A DNA stretch of 64,000 nt from Bacteroidales bacterium (lineage in GTDB: Bacteria > Bacteroidota > Bacteroidia > Bacteroidales > UBA932): contig JAFZZW010000088.1 of the NCBI GenBank assembly GCA_017615615.1, positions 395 through 64,394 on the forward strand. The letters run 5' to 3'. Shown here piece by piece: positions 55,287 through 64,000 of this stretch (position 1 is its first letter; every line of letters starts with the position of its first letter). Position numbers and translations under genes: made by a program. The notes beneath the pieces were generated by a model that saw only the letters and a program-made list of their open reading frames with translations, did no database searches and had not been told where the DNA came from.

Positions 55287-58200
55287 TTACTTCTTTTTGA
55301 TGTATCTGGCGGAAGAAGAATTCCAGCGGGGATCTCCGATATCCGCAGACTTGAGCGTAGGATTGACGAGCTTGAGCTTGAATTCGGCGGAACCTGCGCA
55401 AGGATCCTCTGTCAGGATGCCGCCGCCGTTCGCGACAGCCGCGTCCTGGCTGATGGCTCCGGTGAAGAACTTCTCGCCGACGTTGTAGAACCAGTTGTCG
55501 CTCATGGCGGGCACCGTGGCGCCGGTCTTGGCAAGCAGGGAATTGTTGCCTATGTTGAGGAAGAGGTTCTTCTTGACGACATACCTGGAGGTGGCGTCAG
55601 CGAGAGAGCGGATCCACAGCAGGCCGTTGCCGGCGTCAACCGAGCATGCGGCGAAGGTGTTGTTCGTAATAGCGATGCTTCCTGCAATCTCCTTGTCGAC
55701 GCGGGCGAAATCGCGGCCGCCGTCATAGAAGGAGTTCTCGGAAATGTCGATTACGTCGTACACGCCCTTGCGGATGTCGATCATGCCCTGGCCGGTGCCG
55801 AAGCCGTGGACAAGGTTCTTGCGGAAGTCGAAGGATCCTACCTTGGAATCGGCTCCGTTGCCGTAGAACAGGCTCTTGTTGTAAGCGTTGAAGTCGCAGT
55901 TGGCGATCAGGATCCTCTCGAGCTGGGTGGCCTCTGCAATCTCGAAGGTATTGCCCAGGGCCTTTTCCGCGCCGTTGAAGCTGATGCCGGACACGACGAA
56001 GTCGGTGACTCCGACTCCGAGCTTGAACCCGCCGATTATTTCGACATGGCCGTTTCCGGTCAGGTAAACGGGAGCGGTCAGGTTGATGACGCCGCTCTCT
56101 GCGAGTTCGCGGAGGTCATAGGTGCCGGCCTTGAGGGTAATGCCCCTTTTGCCGGCGTCGAGAACGGTGGCAAGTTCTGTCACGTTGTTGACTGTAATCT
56201 CGCTGCTCACGGATCCTGCATTGGGGTTCCAGCGGGGAGCTCCGACTTCGGAAGCGATGCACAGGGCGCTTGTGAGCGTGTAGTCGCCGTTTGCGGAATC
56301 CTTTACGGGATCGTCGGCGAGTATGACGCCGCCGCCTGCAAGGGCAGCTTCCTGAGTGATTGCACCGCTCCAGAACTTCTCGGCCGTACAGTTGTAGAAG
56401 AAGTTCCTCGCAACCTCGCCCGGCACGGTGCAGCCGCTCTTGGCGAGCAGGTTGTTGGCGCCGTTCTCGTTGAGGAAGAGGTTGTTCTTGACGACGTAGC
56501 TCTCCGGAGTGGAACGGACATAGAGAACGCCGTTTCCGTTATTCAGGGTGACTCCGTCGAAGGTGTTGTTGGTGATGCTGATGGCAGAGATGACCTTGCC
56601 TGCATCGGCCCGTATGAAGTCACGTCCGCCTACGACCGTATTGCCGGAAACGGACACATATGTATACTCACCCTTGCGGATGTCGATGGTGCCCTGGCCT
56701 CCGCCGAGTCCGGAGAAAACGTTGTTGGAGAAGTATAAGGTCGAGAAGGAAGAACCCTCGCCGTTGCCGTAGAAGACGCTCTTGCCGACATTGTTGATGA
56801 CGCAGTTCCTGACTTGCAGGCGCTTCACCACGGATGCGGCGTTCACTTCGATGAAGTTGTTGGAACCGGCGGTTATGGTAAGGTTCTCGATCACTATGTT
56901 GCCGAGTTCGCCTTCAGCCAGGTTGAACTGGTTGACCTTGATGGCTGCGCCGGGTTCGCCGGTAAGTACCATACCGGCACCGAGGGTGATGACGGCTGCG
57001 GAGAGATCGTACTCGCCGGGGGCAAAGATGATATTGTTCTTGCCGGCATCGATGGCGGCCTGGAACTCATCCGCATTGGTTACGCGGAATCCTCCGGTTG
57101 TTACGATGGTGGAAGCGGGGTTCCACTTGGGAGCGCCGACCTGGGCGGCCATCACGACGCCGTTCGTCACGGTGAAGTCGTTGTTGGCGGCATCCTTGAC
57201 GGGATTGACGCTCAGGATGACGCCTTCGCCGCCGAGTGCGGTTTCCTTGTCCATCAGACCGGTGAAGAACACATCGTCGTTGCAGTCATAATAGTAGTTG
57301 CGGGACATCACGGGAACGCTGGCGCCGGCCTTTCCGATGGTCGTGCCGGAAGTCATGCCGAGCAGGAGGTTCCTCTCAACCCTGTAGATGGAAGGCGTCG
57401 CACGGACGTAGAAGATTCCGTTGCCGTTCTTGCTGGTGTTCAGGTTGTACATGGTGTTGTTCTTCACAATCACGCTGTTGAGTGAACACGTGGCGTCGAT
57501 ACGGAGGAAGTCGCGGCCGCCGGTGAGGGTGGAGTTCGCTATGGAGAACTGCTGGTATTTACCGTTGCGGAGGTCGAACATGCCCTGTCCCGTACCGTGG
57601 TCGTAAACTTCCACGCTGGAGAAAGTGATGTTGTCTATCTGGAACTTGTCCGCAGCGTTGGAAGCGTAGATGACGCTCTTGCTGAAGCCTCTGATCACGG
57701 TGCTGCTTACGGAGATGCTCTCTGCCGTTACGCCTTCGGTGCTGTCCAGGTCGATGAATACGCCCTGTGATGCTGCGTCAACCGTAATTCCCTTGATGGA
57801 GAAGTTACCGACTGCACCGCTGAGCTTGAAGGCACCCTTGACGACTGCTTTCCTGCTTCCCTGGAGTGCGAGCGGGGCGGTGACTGTCAGGAGTCCGCCG
57901 AGATCGTATTCGCCATCGGAGAGGGTGATGGCTTCCTTGCCGGCACCGATTGCGGAAAGCAGGCCGTCGATATCCTTGACGACGAGCTCCCCGGACTCTT
58001 CGCTGCCGCCCTTTGGCAGAACTGCGAAGGCGGCGACGCCGGCCTCGGACTGGGTATTGTAAATGTCGCTGGCAGCAGGGTTGGCGTAAACGGCCACGGT
58101 GTAGCTGCCCGCGTCGAGCATGGAGGTCGTCTTGGCCTCAATCACGTACTGCAGGCCGTCGGCGGCGTAGGTCTTGCCGTTGAATACGACGGAATAGCTG

Positions 58201-60425
58201 CCTGCGTTGTCCACTGCTTCCCAGCTGACGACCACGTCGGTGGCCTCACCTGCGGTGAATGAAGAAGGAGTCGCTACGGGTGCAGGAGCGGGCAGGGCGG
58301 TGTTGACCGCGCTGACGTCGGTGCTCCATGCGAGCTCGGCAAGCGCTACCTCGCCGGATGCATACACATACACCCAGCTGGGCTCGGAGATGTCGGAAAT
58401 GACGACTTTCTGCGCTGCGGGTGCGTCGGCCACGGGGGAGACGCCGCCCTTGACGATGAGATCTCCGCCCGCCAGGGGCTGTGTCGCGATGATCAGGTGT
58501 CCGGTGCCTTCGCCGGCCGCCCTTGCCACTACCGATCCGGGAGCGGCGACCTTGAATGCGATATACCCGTCTGCAGGAACCTGCTTGCGGTCGGTGACGG
58601 TGGCGCCGGCAAAGGCGAGCATCCCGTCAGCGGCCACGATGGGGTTGGCCTCGGATGCGGCTACGAGGAGGCCGTCGCGGACCATCTGCTTCTTGATGGT
58701 GCCGGACCAGTTGCGGGCGTTGCCCAGATCCCATACGTGAGCGCCTGTGATGACGCCCTGCGTAAGGTCTTCAGGCTCCTCCACATAAGGAGTCCACCAC
58801 TTGGGTGCGCCAACAGCCTTGCCTGCAATCTCGGAGTCGGGGTTGATGTTGAAATAGCCGCCCGCGGAGTTGAAGCAGGGATCGGCGGAGAGCATGTTGG
58901 CTCCTGCCTTGGCTGCCGGCCAGCTGTCGGTGAAATAGGTTTCGACTACGTCGTAGAACCAGTTGTTGAATGCGGATACGGACACGTCGTCGGCAGTCTT
59001 GTACTTGGCGTTGGCGCTGCCCAGGACGGCCTTCTCCACCATGTGGAGGAAGAGGTTGTTCTTGAAGGAAACGCTGCCGGGAACGATCTGCAGACCGAAG
59101 ATGCCGGCATTGTTGGTGTTGTCGACGAAGTTGAGGTTGCGGATGGTGTTGTTCTCGATCACGAGGGCTCCGATGGTTCCGGCGTCGATACGCAGGAATG
59201 TACGCATGCCCTGGGTGATGGTGTTGCCCACGAAGCTGAGGGAACCGATGGTCGTGGCCTGGCGGATGTCGAACACGTCGCCGCCTCCGGAGCCGTCGGC
59301 GTTGATCTTGGATATTTCGCAGCTGTCGTAGGTGACCTCGCCCAGAACCATAGCCTTGCCCCATTCGTAGATGATGCCCTTGCTGTAGTTCGTGATGACG
59401 CAGTTCCTGTAGGTGAGGTTGCCGATGTTCTTGTCGGCCACCGTGCCGCCGTTCTTGTTCTGGATTGCGAAACCGAATCCGGAAGGCGCTGCAGCCGTGG
59501 GAGCGCCGTTGAACTCCACCCCTTCGAAGTAGAGGTCGGTGCCTGCCCATGTGTCGGCGATCTGGAGTTCGCCGGCGAGGACGGGTTTGGCGCCGTCGGC
59601 AGTTTCTTCGCCGACGAGGGAGAAGCCTGCGGAGATGTCGAGCGTGCCGATGTCATAGGGAGAACCGGCCTGCATCAGACGGATCTTCGCGCCCTGGGTG
59701 GCCATGGCGTTCTTGAGTGCGTCGAGGGTGGAAACCTCGGTGAATCCCGTAACGTCAGGAGTGGTCCAGGCATCCACCTGACCGCGGCTGGCGCTGAGGT
59801 AATAAAGTGTGAAGGTGTACTCCATGGACGGGGCCAGACCGTCGATTACCGCCGCCGCCGCATCGATTTCCGCGGAGGTGAGCTCATGTTTGGCGGAGCC
59901 GTCGCCTCCGGTCATGCCGTATTCAATCCAGGTTACTTCCTTGTAATCGGAAACGTCCTTGGACCATGCGAGCGAGACGCTGGTGGCCTGCCGGTCGGTG
60001 ACCTTCATGAAAAGGTTGTCCTTTACCGCATAAGTCTTGAAGGACTTCTCGGCCACTGCGACGTGGGAGGGCTCCTTCTTCTCGTTGAAGGCCTGCACCG
60101 TGAACCAGTAGGTCTTGTCGGCGGTGAGTTTCTTCACGATGGGCACGTTCGCGGGCTCCACCCTTTCGGAGAAGTCCTTCTTGGTGCGCGCTTCGTCGGT
60201 GTAAACGGTCAGCTCGTAGTATTCGGCATCCTTGGCTACGTCCCAGGAGAAAGTCACCACGTCACCCAGAGTGCTGTTTACCTTGGCTTCAAGGTTCATG
60301 GGCTCCAGGCAGCGGGTCAGGTTCATCTGGTCCACTATATCGAGTTCGCGCTCGACGCAGGAGGCAAAAGCGACTCCGGCAAGCAGGACACAGACTGCGT
60401 ATTTGATAAGGTTTCTGAGTTTCAT
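55287..60425 (-). CDS. Very large surface glycan-binding lipoprotein (FN3 + four DUF4957/DUF5123-like beta-helix modules)
   Basis: FASC lipobox; repeats of G.G..D.R.G.Y...GGRDF.R.D...NNT ending G(A/D)P(K/R)W; directly downstream of susD. Confidence 0.85.
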   Translation of the reverse strand: MKLRNLIKYAVCVLLAGVAFASCVERELDIVDQMNLTRCLEPMNLEAKVNSTLGDVVTFSWDVAKDAEYYELTVYTDEARTKKDFSERVEPANVPIVKKLTADKTYWFTVQAFNEKKEPSHVAVAEKSFKTYAVKDNLFMKVTDRQATSVSLAWSKDVSDYKEVTWIEYGMTGGDGSAKHELTSAEIDAAAAVIDGLAPSMEYTFTLYYLSASRGQVDAWTTPDVTGFTEVSTLDALKNAMATQGAKIRLMQAGSPYDIGTLDISAGFSLVGEETADGAKPVLAGELQIADTWAGTDLYFEGVEFNGAPTAAAPSGFGFAIQNKNGGTVADKNIGNLTYRNCVITNYSKGIIYEWGKAMVLGEVTYDSCEISKINADGSGGGDVFDIRQATTIGSLSFVGNTITQGMRTFLRIDAGTIGALVIENNTIRNLNFVDNTNNAGIFGLQIVPGSVSFKNNLFLHMVEKAVLGSANAKYKTADDVSVSAFNNWFYDVVETYFTDSWPAAKAGANMLSADPCFNSAGGYFNINPDSEIAGKAVGAPKWWTPYVEEPEDLTQGVITGAHVWDLGNARNWSGTIKKQMVRDGLLVAASEANPIVAADGMLAFAGATVTDRKQVPADGYIAFKVAAPGSVVARAAGEGTGHLIIATQPLAGGDLIVKGGVSPVADAPAAQKVVISDISEPSWVYVYASGEVALAELAWSTDVSAVNTALPAPAPVATPSSFTAGEATDVVVSWEAVDNAGSYSVVFNGKTYAADGLQYVIEAKTTSMLDAGSYTVAVYANPAASDIYNTQSEAGVAAFAVLPKGGSEESGELVVKDIDGLLSAIGAGKEAITLSDGEYDLGGLLTVTAPLALQGSRKAVVKGAFKLSGAVGNFSIKGITVDAASQGVFIDLDSTEGVTAESISVSSTVIRGFSKSVIYASNAADKFQIDNITFSSVEVYDHGTGQGMFDLRNGKYQQFSIANSTLTGGRDFLRIDATCSLNSVIVKNNTMYNLNTSKNGNGIFYVRATPSIYRVERNLLLGMTSGTTIGKAGASVPVMSRNYYYDCNDDVFFTGLMDKETALGGEGVILSVNPVKDAANNDFTVTNGVVMAAQVGAPKWNPASTIVTTGGFRVTNADEFQAAIDAGKNNIIFAPGEYDLSAAVITLGAGMVLTGEPGAAIKVNQFNLAEGELGNIVIENLTITAGSNNFIEVNAASVVKRLQVRNCVINNVGKSVFYGNGEGSSFSTLYFSNNVFSGLGGGQGTIDIRKGEYTYVSVSGNTVVGGRDFIRADAGKVISAISITNNTFDGVTLNNGNGVLYVRSTPESYVVKNNLFLNENGANNLLAKSGCTVPGEVARNFFYNCTAEKFWSGAITQEAALAGGGVILADDPVKDSANGDYTLTSALCIASEVGAPRWNPNAGSVSSEITVNNVTELATVLDAGKRGITLKAGTYDLRELAESGVINLTAPVYLTGNGHVEIIGGFKLGVGVTDFVVSGISFNGAEKALGNTFEIAEATQLERILIANCDFNAYNKSLFYGNGADSKVGSFDFRKNLVHGFGTGQGMIDIRKGVYDVIDISENSFYDGGRDFARVDKEIAGSIAITNNTFAACSVDAGNGLLWIRSLADATSRYVVKKNLFLNIGNNSLLAKTGATVPAMSDNWFYNVGEKFFTGAISQDAAVANGGGILTEDPCAGSAEFKLKLVNPTLKSADIGDPRWNSSSARYIKKK

Positions 60426-60438
60426 AAGTCGTGACGGA

Positions 60439-62259
60439 TTAGAGGTTGTCATAACCGTAATCGTTCTTGATGTTGCCCTGGCTGTTGGTCATCGTGTCGA
60501 GGAAGATGGGCCAGAACATGTTCTGCTCAGGATTGCTGACGGTGTAGATACCGTCGATCCTTTCCGTGTAGAAACCGGTATTCTTGGCGTCGTCGTACTT
60601 GGTGACGTAGCCGGCAGACAACTCGGTGCCCGCAGGAGCCGGTTCTCCGGTTTTCAGGAAGGTGATATTGATGGATTTTCCGTCATCCGCGTAGGCGTAG
60701 CATATGTCGCCGCTCAAGCCGGCATAGGCTCCCTGGAGGTCGCGGAGGGCTTTCATGTCAGCCTTGGCGGCATCGAGCCTGGTCTTGAGGAGGTTCCAGC
60801 GGATAAGGTCTCCCTTGCGGAGGAATTCGCCGCAGAACTCGAGCGCACGCTCGTCCACGATGGCGTTGAAGAAAGCGTCCTTGGTGCCGAGGGTGGCTAC
60901 ATAGGCTTCGGCCGCATCCTCGCCGCATGCGCGGGCGCGGACTTCTTTGAGGTACTGCTTTGCGTCCGCGGGTCCGTTGAGTTCGTTCTCGATCTCGGCT
61001 GCCATGAGGAGGATGTCGGCGTAACGCATCACGACAGGCTTGATACCGTCGTCGTTACCGCCGGTGTAGGGCTGGGCGTCCATCCACTCGAAACGGTATT
61101 TGCCGAAGTACCATTTGCCGATGCCTGCGGGCTCGATGGCGTTTTCCTTCGTCCATTTGTAGTTGACGCAGGTGACGTCGCGCCTCTGGTCTCCGTCGGG
61201 ATACTTGAAGTAGACGGTGGGCACAGGGCCTGCATCGCCTCCGCGGGCTACGCCGTTGGAAATGCTCGCGCCCTCGGAAGCGATGGCGAAGGTGAAGTTC
61301 CAGCGGCCGCGTCCGGCTCCGAACGGAATGACGTACAGAGTCTCGTATGCGGGGCCTGCGGTAAGGTTGTTCATGTTGTTGAGATTGAACCACATCTGCC
61401 TGTAGTTCTGCTCGAGGGAAGCTTTGCCCACGGCGTCTTTCAGATAATCAAGCGCCTTGGGATAAAGGACGCTCTTCTGAAGCTCGGGGTCGTTGGTCAG
61501 GCGTACGGTACCGAGGTCTCCGGTGCCGATGGCGTCATCGTCGGGACGGATCGCATAACCTGAGGCTGCAAGGGCGATACGTGCGTAGAGGCCCTCGGCA
61601 AATACCTTGTTGACGCGGTCGGTGCGGGAAGTGGCGGCTGTGGCGCCGGGGTAAGGCAGGTTGGGTATCGCGTCGTCGAGATCTGCAAGAATCTGCTTGA
61701 AGATCACGTCGCGGCTTGCCTTGGGAGCATAAATGGTAGAGGAAGTGAGGGATTCGAAGCGGGCGGGAACGTCACCCCATGCCTTGATCAGGTCGTAGTA
61801 GATCATCGCCCTGAGTGTGAGAGCTTCTGCCAGCAGGTATGCCATGTCGCTCTTGTTCTGGGTGTCTCCGTACTGGCGGAGTCCTTCGATCACGAGGTTG
61901 GCACGTTCGATACCCATGTACATCGTGGGGAACGGACCGTTGGACAGGTTGAGCTGCGAGTTGTTTGGCTGGCAGTTGTATGCTGCGATGTCGGACTTGC
62001 CGTCGCCGGGCTTATGGGTGTTGTACCACTCTATATCCGTATTGAATCCGTACCAGGGGAGGAAACGTCCGCGGTAGGAGTTCACTTCGCAGAAGGACTC
62101 CGTGATACCGAATATGGTGCCCTCGGCGAGGTCGTAGTTGCTGAAAACGGTCTTTGCGTCGAAAGCCGACGGTGAAGACGAATCCAGGAACTTGTCGCAT
62201 GAAACTGCGGAGAAGCTGATCAGAGCCGCAGCAAGTATATATTTTACAAACTTTTTCAT
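60439..62259 (-). CDS. susD: SusD/RagB family lipoprotein
   Basis: AVSC lipobox; Y.GIERAN, EALTLRA..Y.DL..WGDVP, RYADILLM.AE, ERALEF.GE..RK.DLIRW. Confidence 0.95.
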   Translation of the reverse strand: MKKFVKYILAAALISFSAVSCDKFLDSSSPSAFDAKTVFSNYDLAEGTIFGITESFCEVNSYRGRFLPWYGFNTDIEWYNTHKPGDGKSDIAAYNCQPNNSQLNLSNGPFPTMYMGIERANLVIEGLRQYGDTQNKSDMAYLLAEALTLRAMIYYDLIKAWGDVPARFESLTSSTIYAPKASRDVIFKQILADLDDAIPNLPYPGATAATSRTDRVNKVFAEGLYARIALAASGYAIRPDDDAIGTGDLGTVRLTNDPELQKSVLYPKALDYLKDAVGKASLEQNYRQMWFNLNNMNNLTAGPAYETLYVIPFGAGRGRWNFTFAIASEGASISNGVARGGDAGPVPTVYFKYPDGDQRRDVTCVNYKWTKENAIEPAGIGKWYFGKYRFEWMDAQPYTGGNDDGIKPVVMRYADILLMAAEIENELNGPADAKQYLKEVRARACGEDAAEAYVATLGTKDAFFNAIVDERALEFCGEFLRKGDLIRWNLLKTRLDAAKADMKALRDLQGAYAGLSGDICYAYADDGKSINITFLKTGEPAPAGTELSAGYVTKYDDAKNTGFYTERIDGIYTVSNPEQNMFWPIFLDTMTNSQGNIKNDYGYDNL

Positions 62260-62270
62260 ATGCGTGCTGT

Positions 62271-64000
62271 TTACTTGACGATACATACTGCAACACGGTT
62301 GTTCTCGGGGGATGCGGATGCATCCTTGTCGGAACCTGTGCCGGCGGAAGTGATGCGGTCGGCGCTGATGCCTGCGCTCTGCAGCATGCGGGCGACGGCG
62401 TTTGCACGTTCGTCGGAGAGCGTCTGATTGATTTCGGCGGTTCCGGTCGCACTGTCGGCGTAACCCTTGATGACGATCCTGGCGTCGGGGTTGTCCTTGA
62501 GGATCTGGGCGATACGGCCAAGCTTGAAGGCCTCGTCGGGACGGAGCTCGGACTTGCCGATGAGGAAGAAGAGGTCTTCCTCGTATTCACCCTTCAGGGT
62601 GCTGACGGGTACTTCCACGCGCTTCTCGACGACTTTCTCGACGACTTTCTCGACGACCTTTTCAACTTCGACGACTTTCTCCACGACCTTCTCCTTCACA
62701 ACCTCCTTGGCGGCTTCCTTGGCGGCATTGGCCATGGCCGCCGTTGCGACGGTGGCTGCCGCTGCGGGTGCGGAAGCGGAAGTGCGCTTGCCGAAGCTGA
62801 GATTGAGTCCGGCTACGAAGCCGATGCTCTTGGGATATGCTGAATAATCCACGCCCGGGGTGAGGGGAGTGGCGCGGCGGGTATCGACCTCGGGGTCGTA
62901 ACCGCTGTACTTGGTGAGGCACAGCAGGTTGGTGCCGGTCACGTAGAAGCGGACCCGGCTCAGATTGACCTTTTCCGTAAGGTCTGCGGGCAGGGTGTAA
63001 CCGATGGTAGCGCTCTGCAGGCGGAGGAAAGAAGCGTCCTCGACGGCCCAGTCGCTGAAGATTGCCTGGCCGACGAGAGGAGACCACATGGTCTTGCCCT
63101 GGTTGACCTGCCTGAGGACCTCGGGATCGGTGATGAGCTCGCCGGTCTCCCAGTCTATGTTGGTCCAGCGCTTGTCGACATCCATCGCGTCGACCAGGTT
63201 GCGGTTGTAGAACTTGCGGGAGGATGTGAACTCGATCTTGTTGGCGTTGTAAACCTGGTTGCCTATCATGAAGTTGAAGTTGGCGCTGAAGTCGAGGCCC
63301 TTCCAGTAGCCGCTGAGGCCGAAGCCGCCGGTGAAATCGGGACTTGCATTGCCTATTATGGTGCGGTCGGCTACGGTGACCTTGCCGTCGGTGGTCCAGA
63401 CTTCGTTGCCTTCCTCGTCAACAGTCTTGACGTTCTTGGCGATGTCCTTGTACTTGGGTGCGCCCGGCATCATGTACTGCGCGCCGACGATGGCCGAGCA
63501 GTCGACGACACCGTCCTTGAGAACCCACTTGGAGCCGTTCCAGTCGAAATCGTCGACGGTGTACATGCCGTCCGAGATGAATCCGTACATGTTGCCGAGG
63601 GGCTGTCCGACTTCCACTATGTAGTCGTCTCCGATTTCAGTGGAGGCCCAGTATGACTGGGCTGTGATGCTGGGAAGGCCGCCCAGGTCGGTCACGCGGT
63701 TCTGGTTGTACGCGATGTTGCCGTTCAGGCTGAGGGAGAAGTCCTTCTTCTGGACGATGGGGGCGTTGAGCGTGAGCTCGACACCGCGGTTGCGTGTTGA
63801 ACCGAGGTTGCGGTATTGGCTGTCGTAGCCGGAGCCCGTGATGGGGAAGTTGATCAGGAGGTCCCTGGTGTCGTTCTGATAGACTTCGACGCTACCGCTG
63901 AGCCTTGACTGCCAGAGGCTGAAGTCGAGGCCGATGTTGTGGGTGTAGGAAGTTTCCCAGGTGAGGTCGGGATTGTTCATGATCTTGCCTGCCATCCAGT
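62271..64000 (-). CDS. susC: SusC TonB-dependent transporter (5' end outside window) fused to a C-terminal OmpA-like domain
   Basis: NPDLTWET, N.GVEL, VEDASFLRLQ...GYT, YSGYDPE, YP...GLNLSF; reads on for 173 aa including GYAD...N..LS..RA.AV and NRVA. Confidence 0.93.
   Translation of the reverse strand, partial: WMAGKIMNNPDLTWETSYTHNIGLDFSLWQSRLSGSVEVYQNDTRDLLINFPITGSGYDSQYRNLGSTRNRGVELTLNAPIVQKKDFSLSLNGNIAYNQNRVTDLGGLPSITAQSYWASTEIGDDYIVEVGQPLGNMYGFISDGMYTVDDFDWNGSKWVLKDGVVDCSAIVGAQYMMPGAPKYKDIAKNVKTVDEEGNEVWTTDGKVTVADRTIIGNASPDFTGGFGLSGYWKGLDFSANFNFMIGNQVYNANKIEFTSSRKFYNRNLVDAMDVDKRWTNIDWETGELITDPEVLRQVNQGKTMWSPLVGQAIFSDWAVEDASFLRLQSATIGYTLPADLTEKVNLSRVRFYVTGTNLLCLTKYSGYDPEVDTRRATPLTPGVDYSAYPKSIGFVAGLNLSFGKRTSASAPAAAATVATAAMANAAKEAAKEVVKEKVVEKVVEVEKVVEKVVEKVVEKRVEVPVSTLKGEYEEDLFFLIGKSELRPDEAFKLGRIAQILKDNPDARIVIKGYADSATGTAEINQTLSDERANAVARMLQSAGISADRITSAGTGSDKDASASPENNRVAVCIVK

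Follow-up and report, generated by a model that had tools for sequence, protein, structure and literature searches.

A SusC-type glycan importer with an OmpA-like C-terminal domain in rumen Bacteroidales, a recurrent module predicted to tether the transporter to the cell wall

Glycan import in Bacteroidota centres on SusC-SusD complexes, which have been well studied structurally. To our knowledge, the described examples all end at the barrel. The 64,000-nucleotide stretch of DNA analysed here, which we call the window (positions 395 to 64,394 of contig JAFZZW010000088.1 from a Bacteroidales bacterium, assembly GCA_017615615.1; G000:C58:395-64394 in our numbering), contains a SusC gene whose reading frame continues past the last barrel residue into an OmpA_C-like domain. 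Is this fusion a genuine gene, and what could an OmpA-type tail contribute to a glycan importer? We find an intact operon of SusC, SusD, and surface-protein genes that holds a genuine in-frame SusC-OmpA_C fusion. A search of the full-text literature found no description of a SusC-OmpA fusion, and the arrangement is new as an undescribed, conserved, and mobile combination of two well-known families. The best explanation, which we regard as likely from sequence comparison and structural modelling, is that a working SusC/RagA TonB-dependent glycan importer, with import being its predicted function, has been extended at its periplasmic C terminus with the periplasmic part of an OmpA protein, which would tether SusC-SusD to the wall.

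A SusC barrel with an exact in-frame insert at its C terminus

The fused protein scored 807.9 bits against the SusC/RagA model TIGR04056 (cut-off 368.25), with model positions 2-981 of 981 falling on residues 26-1082, and it contains the SusC signature TIGR04057 (59.2 bits against a cut-off of 46.2, residues 198-228) and a Plug domain (PF07715, E 8.4e-18). The complete gene lies at L004:2666-6433 on the minus strand of the contig and encodes 1255 amino acids; in the window, its minus-strand frame is open over 62271-63998 and runs past the window end, with the last 575 codons inside. The protein shares with canonical SusC/RagA proteins (e.g. Bacteroides thetaiotaomicron SusC and SusC2D2 utilisomes) a CarboxypepD_reg-like N-terminal extension, a plug, a 22-strand barrel, the SusC signature, and a SusD lipoprotein gene immediately downstream. 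In canonical proteins, and likewise in the closest same-genus orthologs, the terminal Phe is the last residue, whereas here this Phe is internal and is followed by 173 periplasmic residues; both termini of a TonB-dependent barrel are periplasmic. The missing C-terminal end at Phe is a point of difference and is no ground for removing the barrel from the SusC family.

A preliminary description of this locus, made from the sequence alone, had placed the barrel end at a Phe codon (62793-62795) without a stop and with the frame continuing, and had held that SusC proteins normally end at that residue. Translation and the TIGR04056 alignment ending at residue 1082 confirm the former, and same-genus orthologs, which stop right there, confirm the latter. 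Its account of an Ala-rich and (EKVV)n linker leading into an OmpA_C-like domain is likewise borne out by PF00691 and by the AlphaFold fold, and the SusD gene that it had placed 11 bp past the stop in an intact operon is a PF07980 gene that does start 11 nt after the TAA.

The boundaries of the tail became clear when residues 700-1255 were searched against 80 same-genus species, in which the match to about 25 orthologs (60-80% identity) ends at the barrel end with TAA. In the DNA of ten same-genus orthologs that are 78-85% identical over the last 82 barrel residues, NL(S/T)F is followed by TAA, by 11-13 nt, and by a SusD start of the form ATGAA(A/C)AA(G/A). In this gene, 519 nt (173 codons, 62274-62792) are inserted between the Phe codon and the same TAA, and the spacing of 11 nt from SusC stop to SusD start is kept. 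Judged by the ortholog arrangement, the tail has thus been inserted exactly and in frame, after the Phe codon and before the stop. The genome is a metagenome-assembled genome (MAG), 72% complete and in 92 contigs, and a fusion in such an assembly could in principle reflect a lost stop codon, a frameshift, or a chimera joining SusC to an OmpA gene. We consider this extremely unlikely, as the identical junction is found in more than 100 independent assemblies from different projects, no OmpA gene lies between SusC and SusD in the orthologs, the tail carries no signal peptide or lipobox of its own, and its GC content (0.607, barrel 0.584) and third-position GC content (0.751, barrel 0.805) are similar to those of the barrel. 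An assembly or frameshift artefact is therefore rejected on account of recurrence and in-frame conservation; misassembly, which the preliminary description had itself named as a danger to its reading, is not borne out in view of the recurrence across assemblies and the exact in-frame boundaries in orthologs. More specifically, a separate OmpA gene that lost the preceding stop is ruled out, since no gene separates SusC from SusD in the orthologs and the tail lacks an export signal.

Recurrence, exchange, and origin of the tail

The fusion had been handled as a single odd gene in the preliminary description; instead, the tail is a recurrent module on many SusC families that is often gained or lost. 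When junction and tail were searched against 5.8 billion proteins and 8000 candidates were scored, 1966 matches were obtained at E <=1e-3; the best 120 all contain PF00691, most also contain SusC domains, and the few source-named matches among these 120 carry only the name 'SusC/RagA'. The shorter matches in which Pfam saw OmpA alone are also TIGR04056 members, without the N-terminal extension. Orthologs of the query barrel (barrels 57-82% identical) have OmpA domains 54-79% identical to that of the query, and barrels only 23-31% identical to the query still bear tails that are 63-79% identical, with OmpA domains at 63-78%.

A scan of one genome per species gave 107 loci. The best 80 were retained. 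Their 46 source MAGs, each contributing at most 6 loci, all belong to uncultured Bacteroidales sampled from the rumen or gut of cattle, goats, sheep, buffalo, and deer, and the tail terminates a frame of at least 1050 aa in 75 of the 80 loci. Among the recovered loci, the tail is found only on SusC-type TonB-dependent transporters. Comparison of 2775 locus pairs gave mean identities of about 26-28% for the barrels and 66-70% for the tails, and clustering of 190 barrels at >=50% identity gave 23 clusters, so that at least 23 SusC clusters carry the tail. Strong within-genome homogenisation of tails was considered and found to be weak at best, with the tails of paralogous barrels being 69% identical within a genome and 66% between genomes. 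In two loci (L047 from RUG528 and L066 from Red_deer_1_mag_29), the frame that holds the conserved tail is just 319 and 683 aa long, respectively, with no contig end interrupting it, and these may be broken or rearranged copies.

The SusC-OmpA fusion recurs within the genus. Among 400 same-genus species, 37 plus this genome match at E <=1e-25, about 30 of them in SusC-length frames (~8%), and carriers hold 1 to 8 matches each, although these per-genome counts may be higher because 8 candidates per genome were scored. At E 1e-30, this tail type gave no match in 400 genomes representing 148 other families of the order, more divergent SusC-OmpA fusions elsewhere not having been searched systematically.

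The pattern of gain and loss was followed on a FastTree tree built from the last 383 barrel residues of the ortholog group (33 tailed genes, 23 tail-less genes, one with an alternative tail, and two paralogs as outgroup). On this tree, genes with and without the tail intermingle, and three small mixed clades have support >=0.95. Since gain and loss occur exactly at the same two boundaries, the simplest explanation is that tailed and tail-less alleles or paralogs recombine homologously, with the barrel end and the SusD start serving as flanks. The gene with the alternative tail (L098:14-3796, G051:C48; 78% identical over the last 82 barrel residues), which belongs to another species of the genus, bears a different 193-residue tail at the same position (approximately L098:3215-3796), in which a heptad-like coiled coil precedes a divergent OmpA family domain (Pfam E 3.1e-12). 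The latter domain seemingly lacks the usual Asp of the binding motif. That two unrelated OmpA tails occur at one site argues that anchoring of this transporter is selected and not accidental. A further class of tail, which we call class 2, is 38-44% identical to the tail described here and has an Ala-rich helical linker instead of (EKVV)n. It occurs on same-genus SusC frames of 1258-1410 aa (P0151; G021:C31, G021:C41, G650:C47, G650:C35, G665:C2, and G516:C6) and only inside the genus, with none in SusC-length frames of the 400 genomes from 148 other families.

The linker and its flanks point to the source of the tail. Tandem Repeats Finder reported a period of 12 with 5-7 copies at 62614-62694, and linker length could vary by slippage of this repeat. 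All tails, as well as classic OmpA, retain the (EKVV)n repeat, and the whole tail spans 153-176 residues in nine proteins for which both domain calls were obtained. A search of the tail against 1.84 billion cluster representatives (50% identity) returned mostly short fragments and classic Bacteroidales OmpA (~350-400 aa, ~35-50% identity) rather than full-length fusions, and is therefore of limited value for the architecture; several of the classic OmpA matches begin inside the repeat linker. In the classic OmpA proteins P0135 and P0145, an 8-strand barrel (PF13505) ending in F leads via G-x-K-K, an Ala-rich stretch, and (EKVV)n into an OmpA_C domain whose last residues read ...NRVAxC(I/V)xK. 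The fusion shares the F-G-x-K-K junction, the Ala-rich spacer, the (EKVV)n repeat, and the OmpA_C ending with this group, which also includes the solved OmpA_C-like domain 9uu2, and P0135 is 50% identical to the tail over the OmpA domain. This match in layout suggests that the SusC tail is the entire periplasmic part of a classic OmpA, now attached to a large barrel instead of a small one, and on this comparison the periplasmic part of a classic Bacteroidales OmpA is the likely donor. The two differ in that classic OmpA has an 8-strand barrel and the fusion a 22-strand SusC transporter, and the SusC tails form their own tighter group relative to classic OmpA (55-79% identity among one another). 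Identity of the whole protein as a classic OmpA was rejected, as its N-terminal part is a SusC barrel and PF13505, present in P0135 and P0145, is absent here. The only other strong OmpA-domain gene of the genome (L097:502-1587, G000:C42) codes for an exported protein of 361 aa that combines a weak Laminin_G_3-like region with an OmpA_C domain.

Fold, pairing, and predicted function of the tail

The Pfam family OmpA (PF00691) was matched by residues 1157-1247 (E 3.2e-18, 66.3 bits against a cut-off of 27.2). AlphaFold2, run on an alignment of 45 tails, modelled tail residues 65-173 with a predicted local confidence (pLDDT) above 90 and the linker with one below 50, and the tail in this model has the beta-alpha-beta-alpha-beta-beta fold of Pal/OmpA C domains. 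In Foldseek, the domain groups with the peptidoglycan-binding domains of OprF, Pal, Acinetobacter baumannii OmpA, PorE, and Capnocytophaga OmpA, and the matches 5u1h, 9uu2, 2hqs, 3td3, and 5wtp all have a probability of 1.00 and TM-scores (normalised to target length) of 0.71-0.90, those to the C domains of OprF, Pal, and OmpA being 0.75-0.90. The closest solved relative by sequence is 9uu2 ('Major outer membrane protein', E 3.9e-21), and 1r1m, the structure of Neisseria RmpM, is also among the sequence matches of the tail. The domain was not assigned to the Pal lipoproteins, as it reaches only 46.5 bits against the TIGR02802 cut-off of 125.35, lies within a barrel protein, and lacks a lipobox.

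OmpA_C domains bind peptidoglycan non-covalently. Among the 45 tails, 24 columns are invariant, including tail residues D113 (Asp1195) and R129 (Arg1211) in the GYAD...LSxxRA motif, and, in alignments, these two residues correspond to the TD...RA motif of YiaD and to 9uu2. In A. baumannii OmpA, diaminopimelate is bound by Asp271 and Arg286 (PMC5974059), to which Asp1195 and Arg1211 correspond by motif alignment only. Tethering to peptidoglycan is thus the predicted and best-supported function of the tail, and a wall-anchored utilisome, as had been proposed in the preliminary description, is a natural inference from the Pal/OmpA-like fold and the invariant Asp and Arg. That description had also suggested that such a tether might brace TonB pulling, keep the surface-protein complex in position, or exclude the transporter from vesicles.

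The tail may also act as a pair. A two-copy model of the tail scored 0.75, whereas the best of three controls scored 0.00; the two-copy runs agree in at least 86% of contacts, with partner pLDDT of at least 81. The predicted interface is formed by the repeat stalk (tail residues 32-65) together with the first helix of the domain (82-100), and this helix holds the invariant residues E87, A88, K90, G92, and I94 of the E-A-F-K-L-G signature motif, whose strong conservation the predicted pairing would account for. SusC2D2 is a dimeric organisation in Bacteroides structures. On this modelling, two tails probably pair via stalk and first helix, an arrangement that would suit the presence of two barrels in SusC2D2.

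If these predictions hold, the tail would reach the cell wall after insertion of the barrel and bind it non-covalently, so that each SusC-SusD complex would become a tether between outer membrane and wall and be fixed in place, with the two tails pairing in a manner suited to SusC2D2. Such tethering would limit lateral movement and retain the transporter on the cell rather than in shed vesicles, and the extra tethers could hold the membrane together where transporters crowd or dominate. The tail itself would be an optional cassette that SusC genes exchange through recombination at the end of the barrel and the start of SusD. There are two partial precedents. Neisseria RmpM (class 4 protein), which has an OmpA_C domain, forms complexes with the TonB-dependent transporters LbpA, TbpA, and FrpB and links them to peptidoglycan through this domain (PMC8497027), but it is a separate protein acting in trans in Proteobacteria, whereas the link described here is a covalent fusion in Bacteroidota. 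OmpM of diderm Firmicutes is a single polypeptide of porin barrel, stalk, and SLH domain that serves as both nutrient channel and outer-membrane-to-wall tether, a tether that in our case would follow from the predicted binding; it differs from the fusion in barrel family, in its N-terminal SLH domain as opposed to a C-terminal OmpA_C domain, and in passive diffusion as opposed to TonB-driven import (PMC10628300).

The Neisseria system also bears on a different role for the tail, namely in energy coupling, with the barrel being fixed to the wall, or held at wall gaps that TonB-ExbBD can reach, for a better TonB pull on the plug. Loss of RmpM is reported to lower transporter complexes and lactoferrin-dependent growth (PMC8497027), and the restriction of the tail to SusC-type transporters among the recovered loci would fit this role as well. 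Contrarily, most SusC proteins of the same genomes and genus work without a tail, and the sequence holds nothing that separates energy coupling from simple tethering; we consider energy coupling as the role of the tail unlikely.

Several observations weigh against wall tethering by paired tails as the explanation. Fitch parsimony requires at least nine gains or losses of the tail within the one ortholog group, and approximately 92% of the species in the genus are without it, which together indicate that the tail is dispensable. The carriers G650 and G007 (95% and 92% complete) keep a classic barrel OmpA, and thus the tail fills no missing function; a classic barrel OmpA was not found in this genome, G482, or G614, which are 72-84% complete, but a role for the tail as replacement for a missing classic OmpA is unsupported, since the near-complete carriers still have one. 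With regard to pairing, the stalk is of low confidence when modelled as a monomer. OmpA_C-type dimers have already been solved, and the dimer result may partly reflect likeness to them. Of 30 proteins whose solved structures pair two copies of one chain, 20 attained the 0.75 mark, as did 1 of 23 whose structures are single chains; these counts give only a rough calibration because our own alignment was used.

The repeated gains and losses, the patchy distribution within one genus, and a linker that is a 12-bp tandem repeat in the DNA would also be expected if the tail were a nearly neutral passenger, a recombination-prone cassette that, helped by this repeat and by conserved flanks, spreads among SusC genes because it does little harm. 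However, the tails are about 66% identical and the carrying barrels about 26%, the 24 invariant columns take in residues of the predicted interface helix as well as the putative ligand residues Asp and Arg, a second and unrelated OmpA tail was acquired at the same site, and the frame is unbroken in 75 of 80 loci. We therefore hold a neutral passenger to be very unlikely, and tethering of the importer to the wall remains our preferred explanation.

The operon and what the tail may mean for glycan uptake

The coordinates of the fused gene and its neighbours are collected in Table 1. The longest open reading frame (ORF) of the SusD gene would start further upstream, with an in-frame ATG (62284-62286) inside the end of the SusC gene; orthologs favour ATGAAAAAG, after which a lipoprotein signal follows. 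The surface protein, given as 1712 aa in the preliminary description, is encoded by an ORF of 1721 aa. Directly upstream of SusC and outside the window, L004:6445-8322 on the minus strand encodes a lipoprotein-like protein of approximately 625 aa with an fn3 domain. The large C-terminal part of this protein has no Pfam match at E 0.01 and resembles, by eye, a beta-helix of the pectate-lyase type, a look that would suit the pectin/uronate genes found elsewhere in the window.

Table 1. Positions of the fused gene, its parts, and the downstream genes in the window
Feature	Position	Strand	Remarks
C-terminal part of SusC/RagA barrel	62793..64000	-	residues ~681-1082 of 1255; Plug, TonB_dep_Rec_b-barrel, and CarbopepD_reg_2 by Pfam
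Phe1082, last barrel residue, closing GFVAGLNLSF	62793-62795	-	no stop codon next
Ala-rich spacer, residues 1083-1111, GKRTSASAPAAAAT...	62706..62792	-	translation; AlphaFold pLDDT <50
(EKVV)n repeat linker, residues 1112-1143	62610..62705	-	12-bp tandem repeat in the DNA
OmpA_C-like domain, predicted to bind peptidoglycan, residues ~1152-1255	62274..62585	-	PF00691, AlphaFold, Foldseek
Asp1195	62454-62456	-	putative ligand residue in OmpA_C domain
Arg1211	62406-62408	-	putative ligand residue in OmpA_C domain
TAA stop of fused gene	62271-62273	-	same TAA directly 3' of the Phe codon in tail-less orthologs
SusD-like lipoprotein gene, start ATGAAAAAG at 62257-62259	60439..62259	-	PF07980 E 1.1e-26, PF14322; ortholog-conserved start and spacing
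Surface protein gene, 1721 aa, fn3 + DUF4957 x4 + DUF5123 x4	55287..60452	-	Pfam, ORF list

The automatic annotation 'SusC/RagA family' conceals a distinct architecture in rumen genomes. A covalent wall anchor would alter the mobility of the transporter, its partition between cell and vesicle, and possibly its resistance to TonB force, and the contrast between close orthologs with and without the tail offers a natural system for the effects of tethering on a TonB-dependent transporter. It is conceivable, if rather doubtful, that rumen Bacteroidales add or remove an anchoring cassette per SusC gene and thereby decide whether an importer is a wall-fixed dimer or one that diffuses freely and leaves in vesicles. 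If true, this would constitute a new level of control over the sharing or private keeping of polysaccharide utilisation machinery, with the wall-fixed importer perhaps also positioned for TonB.

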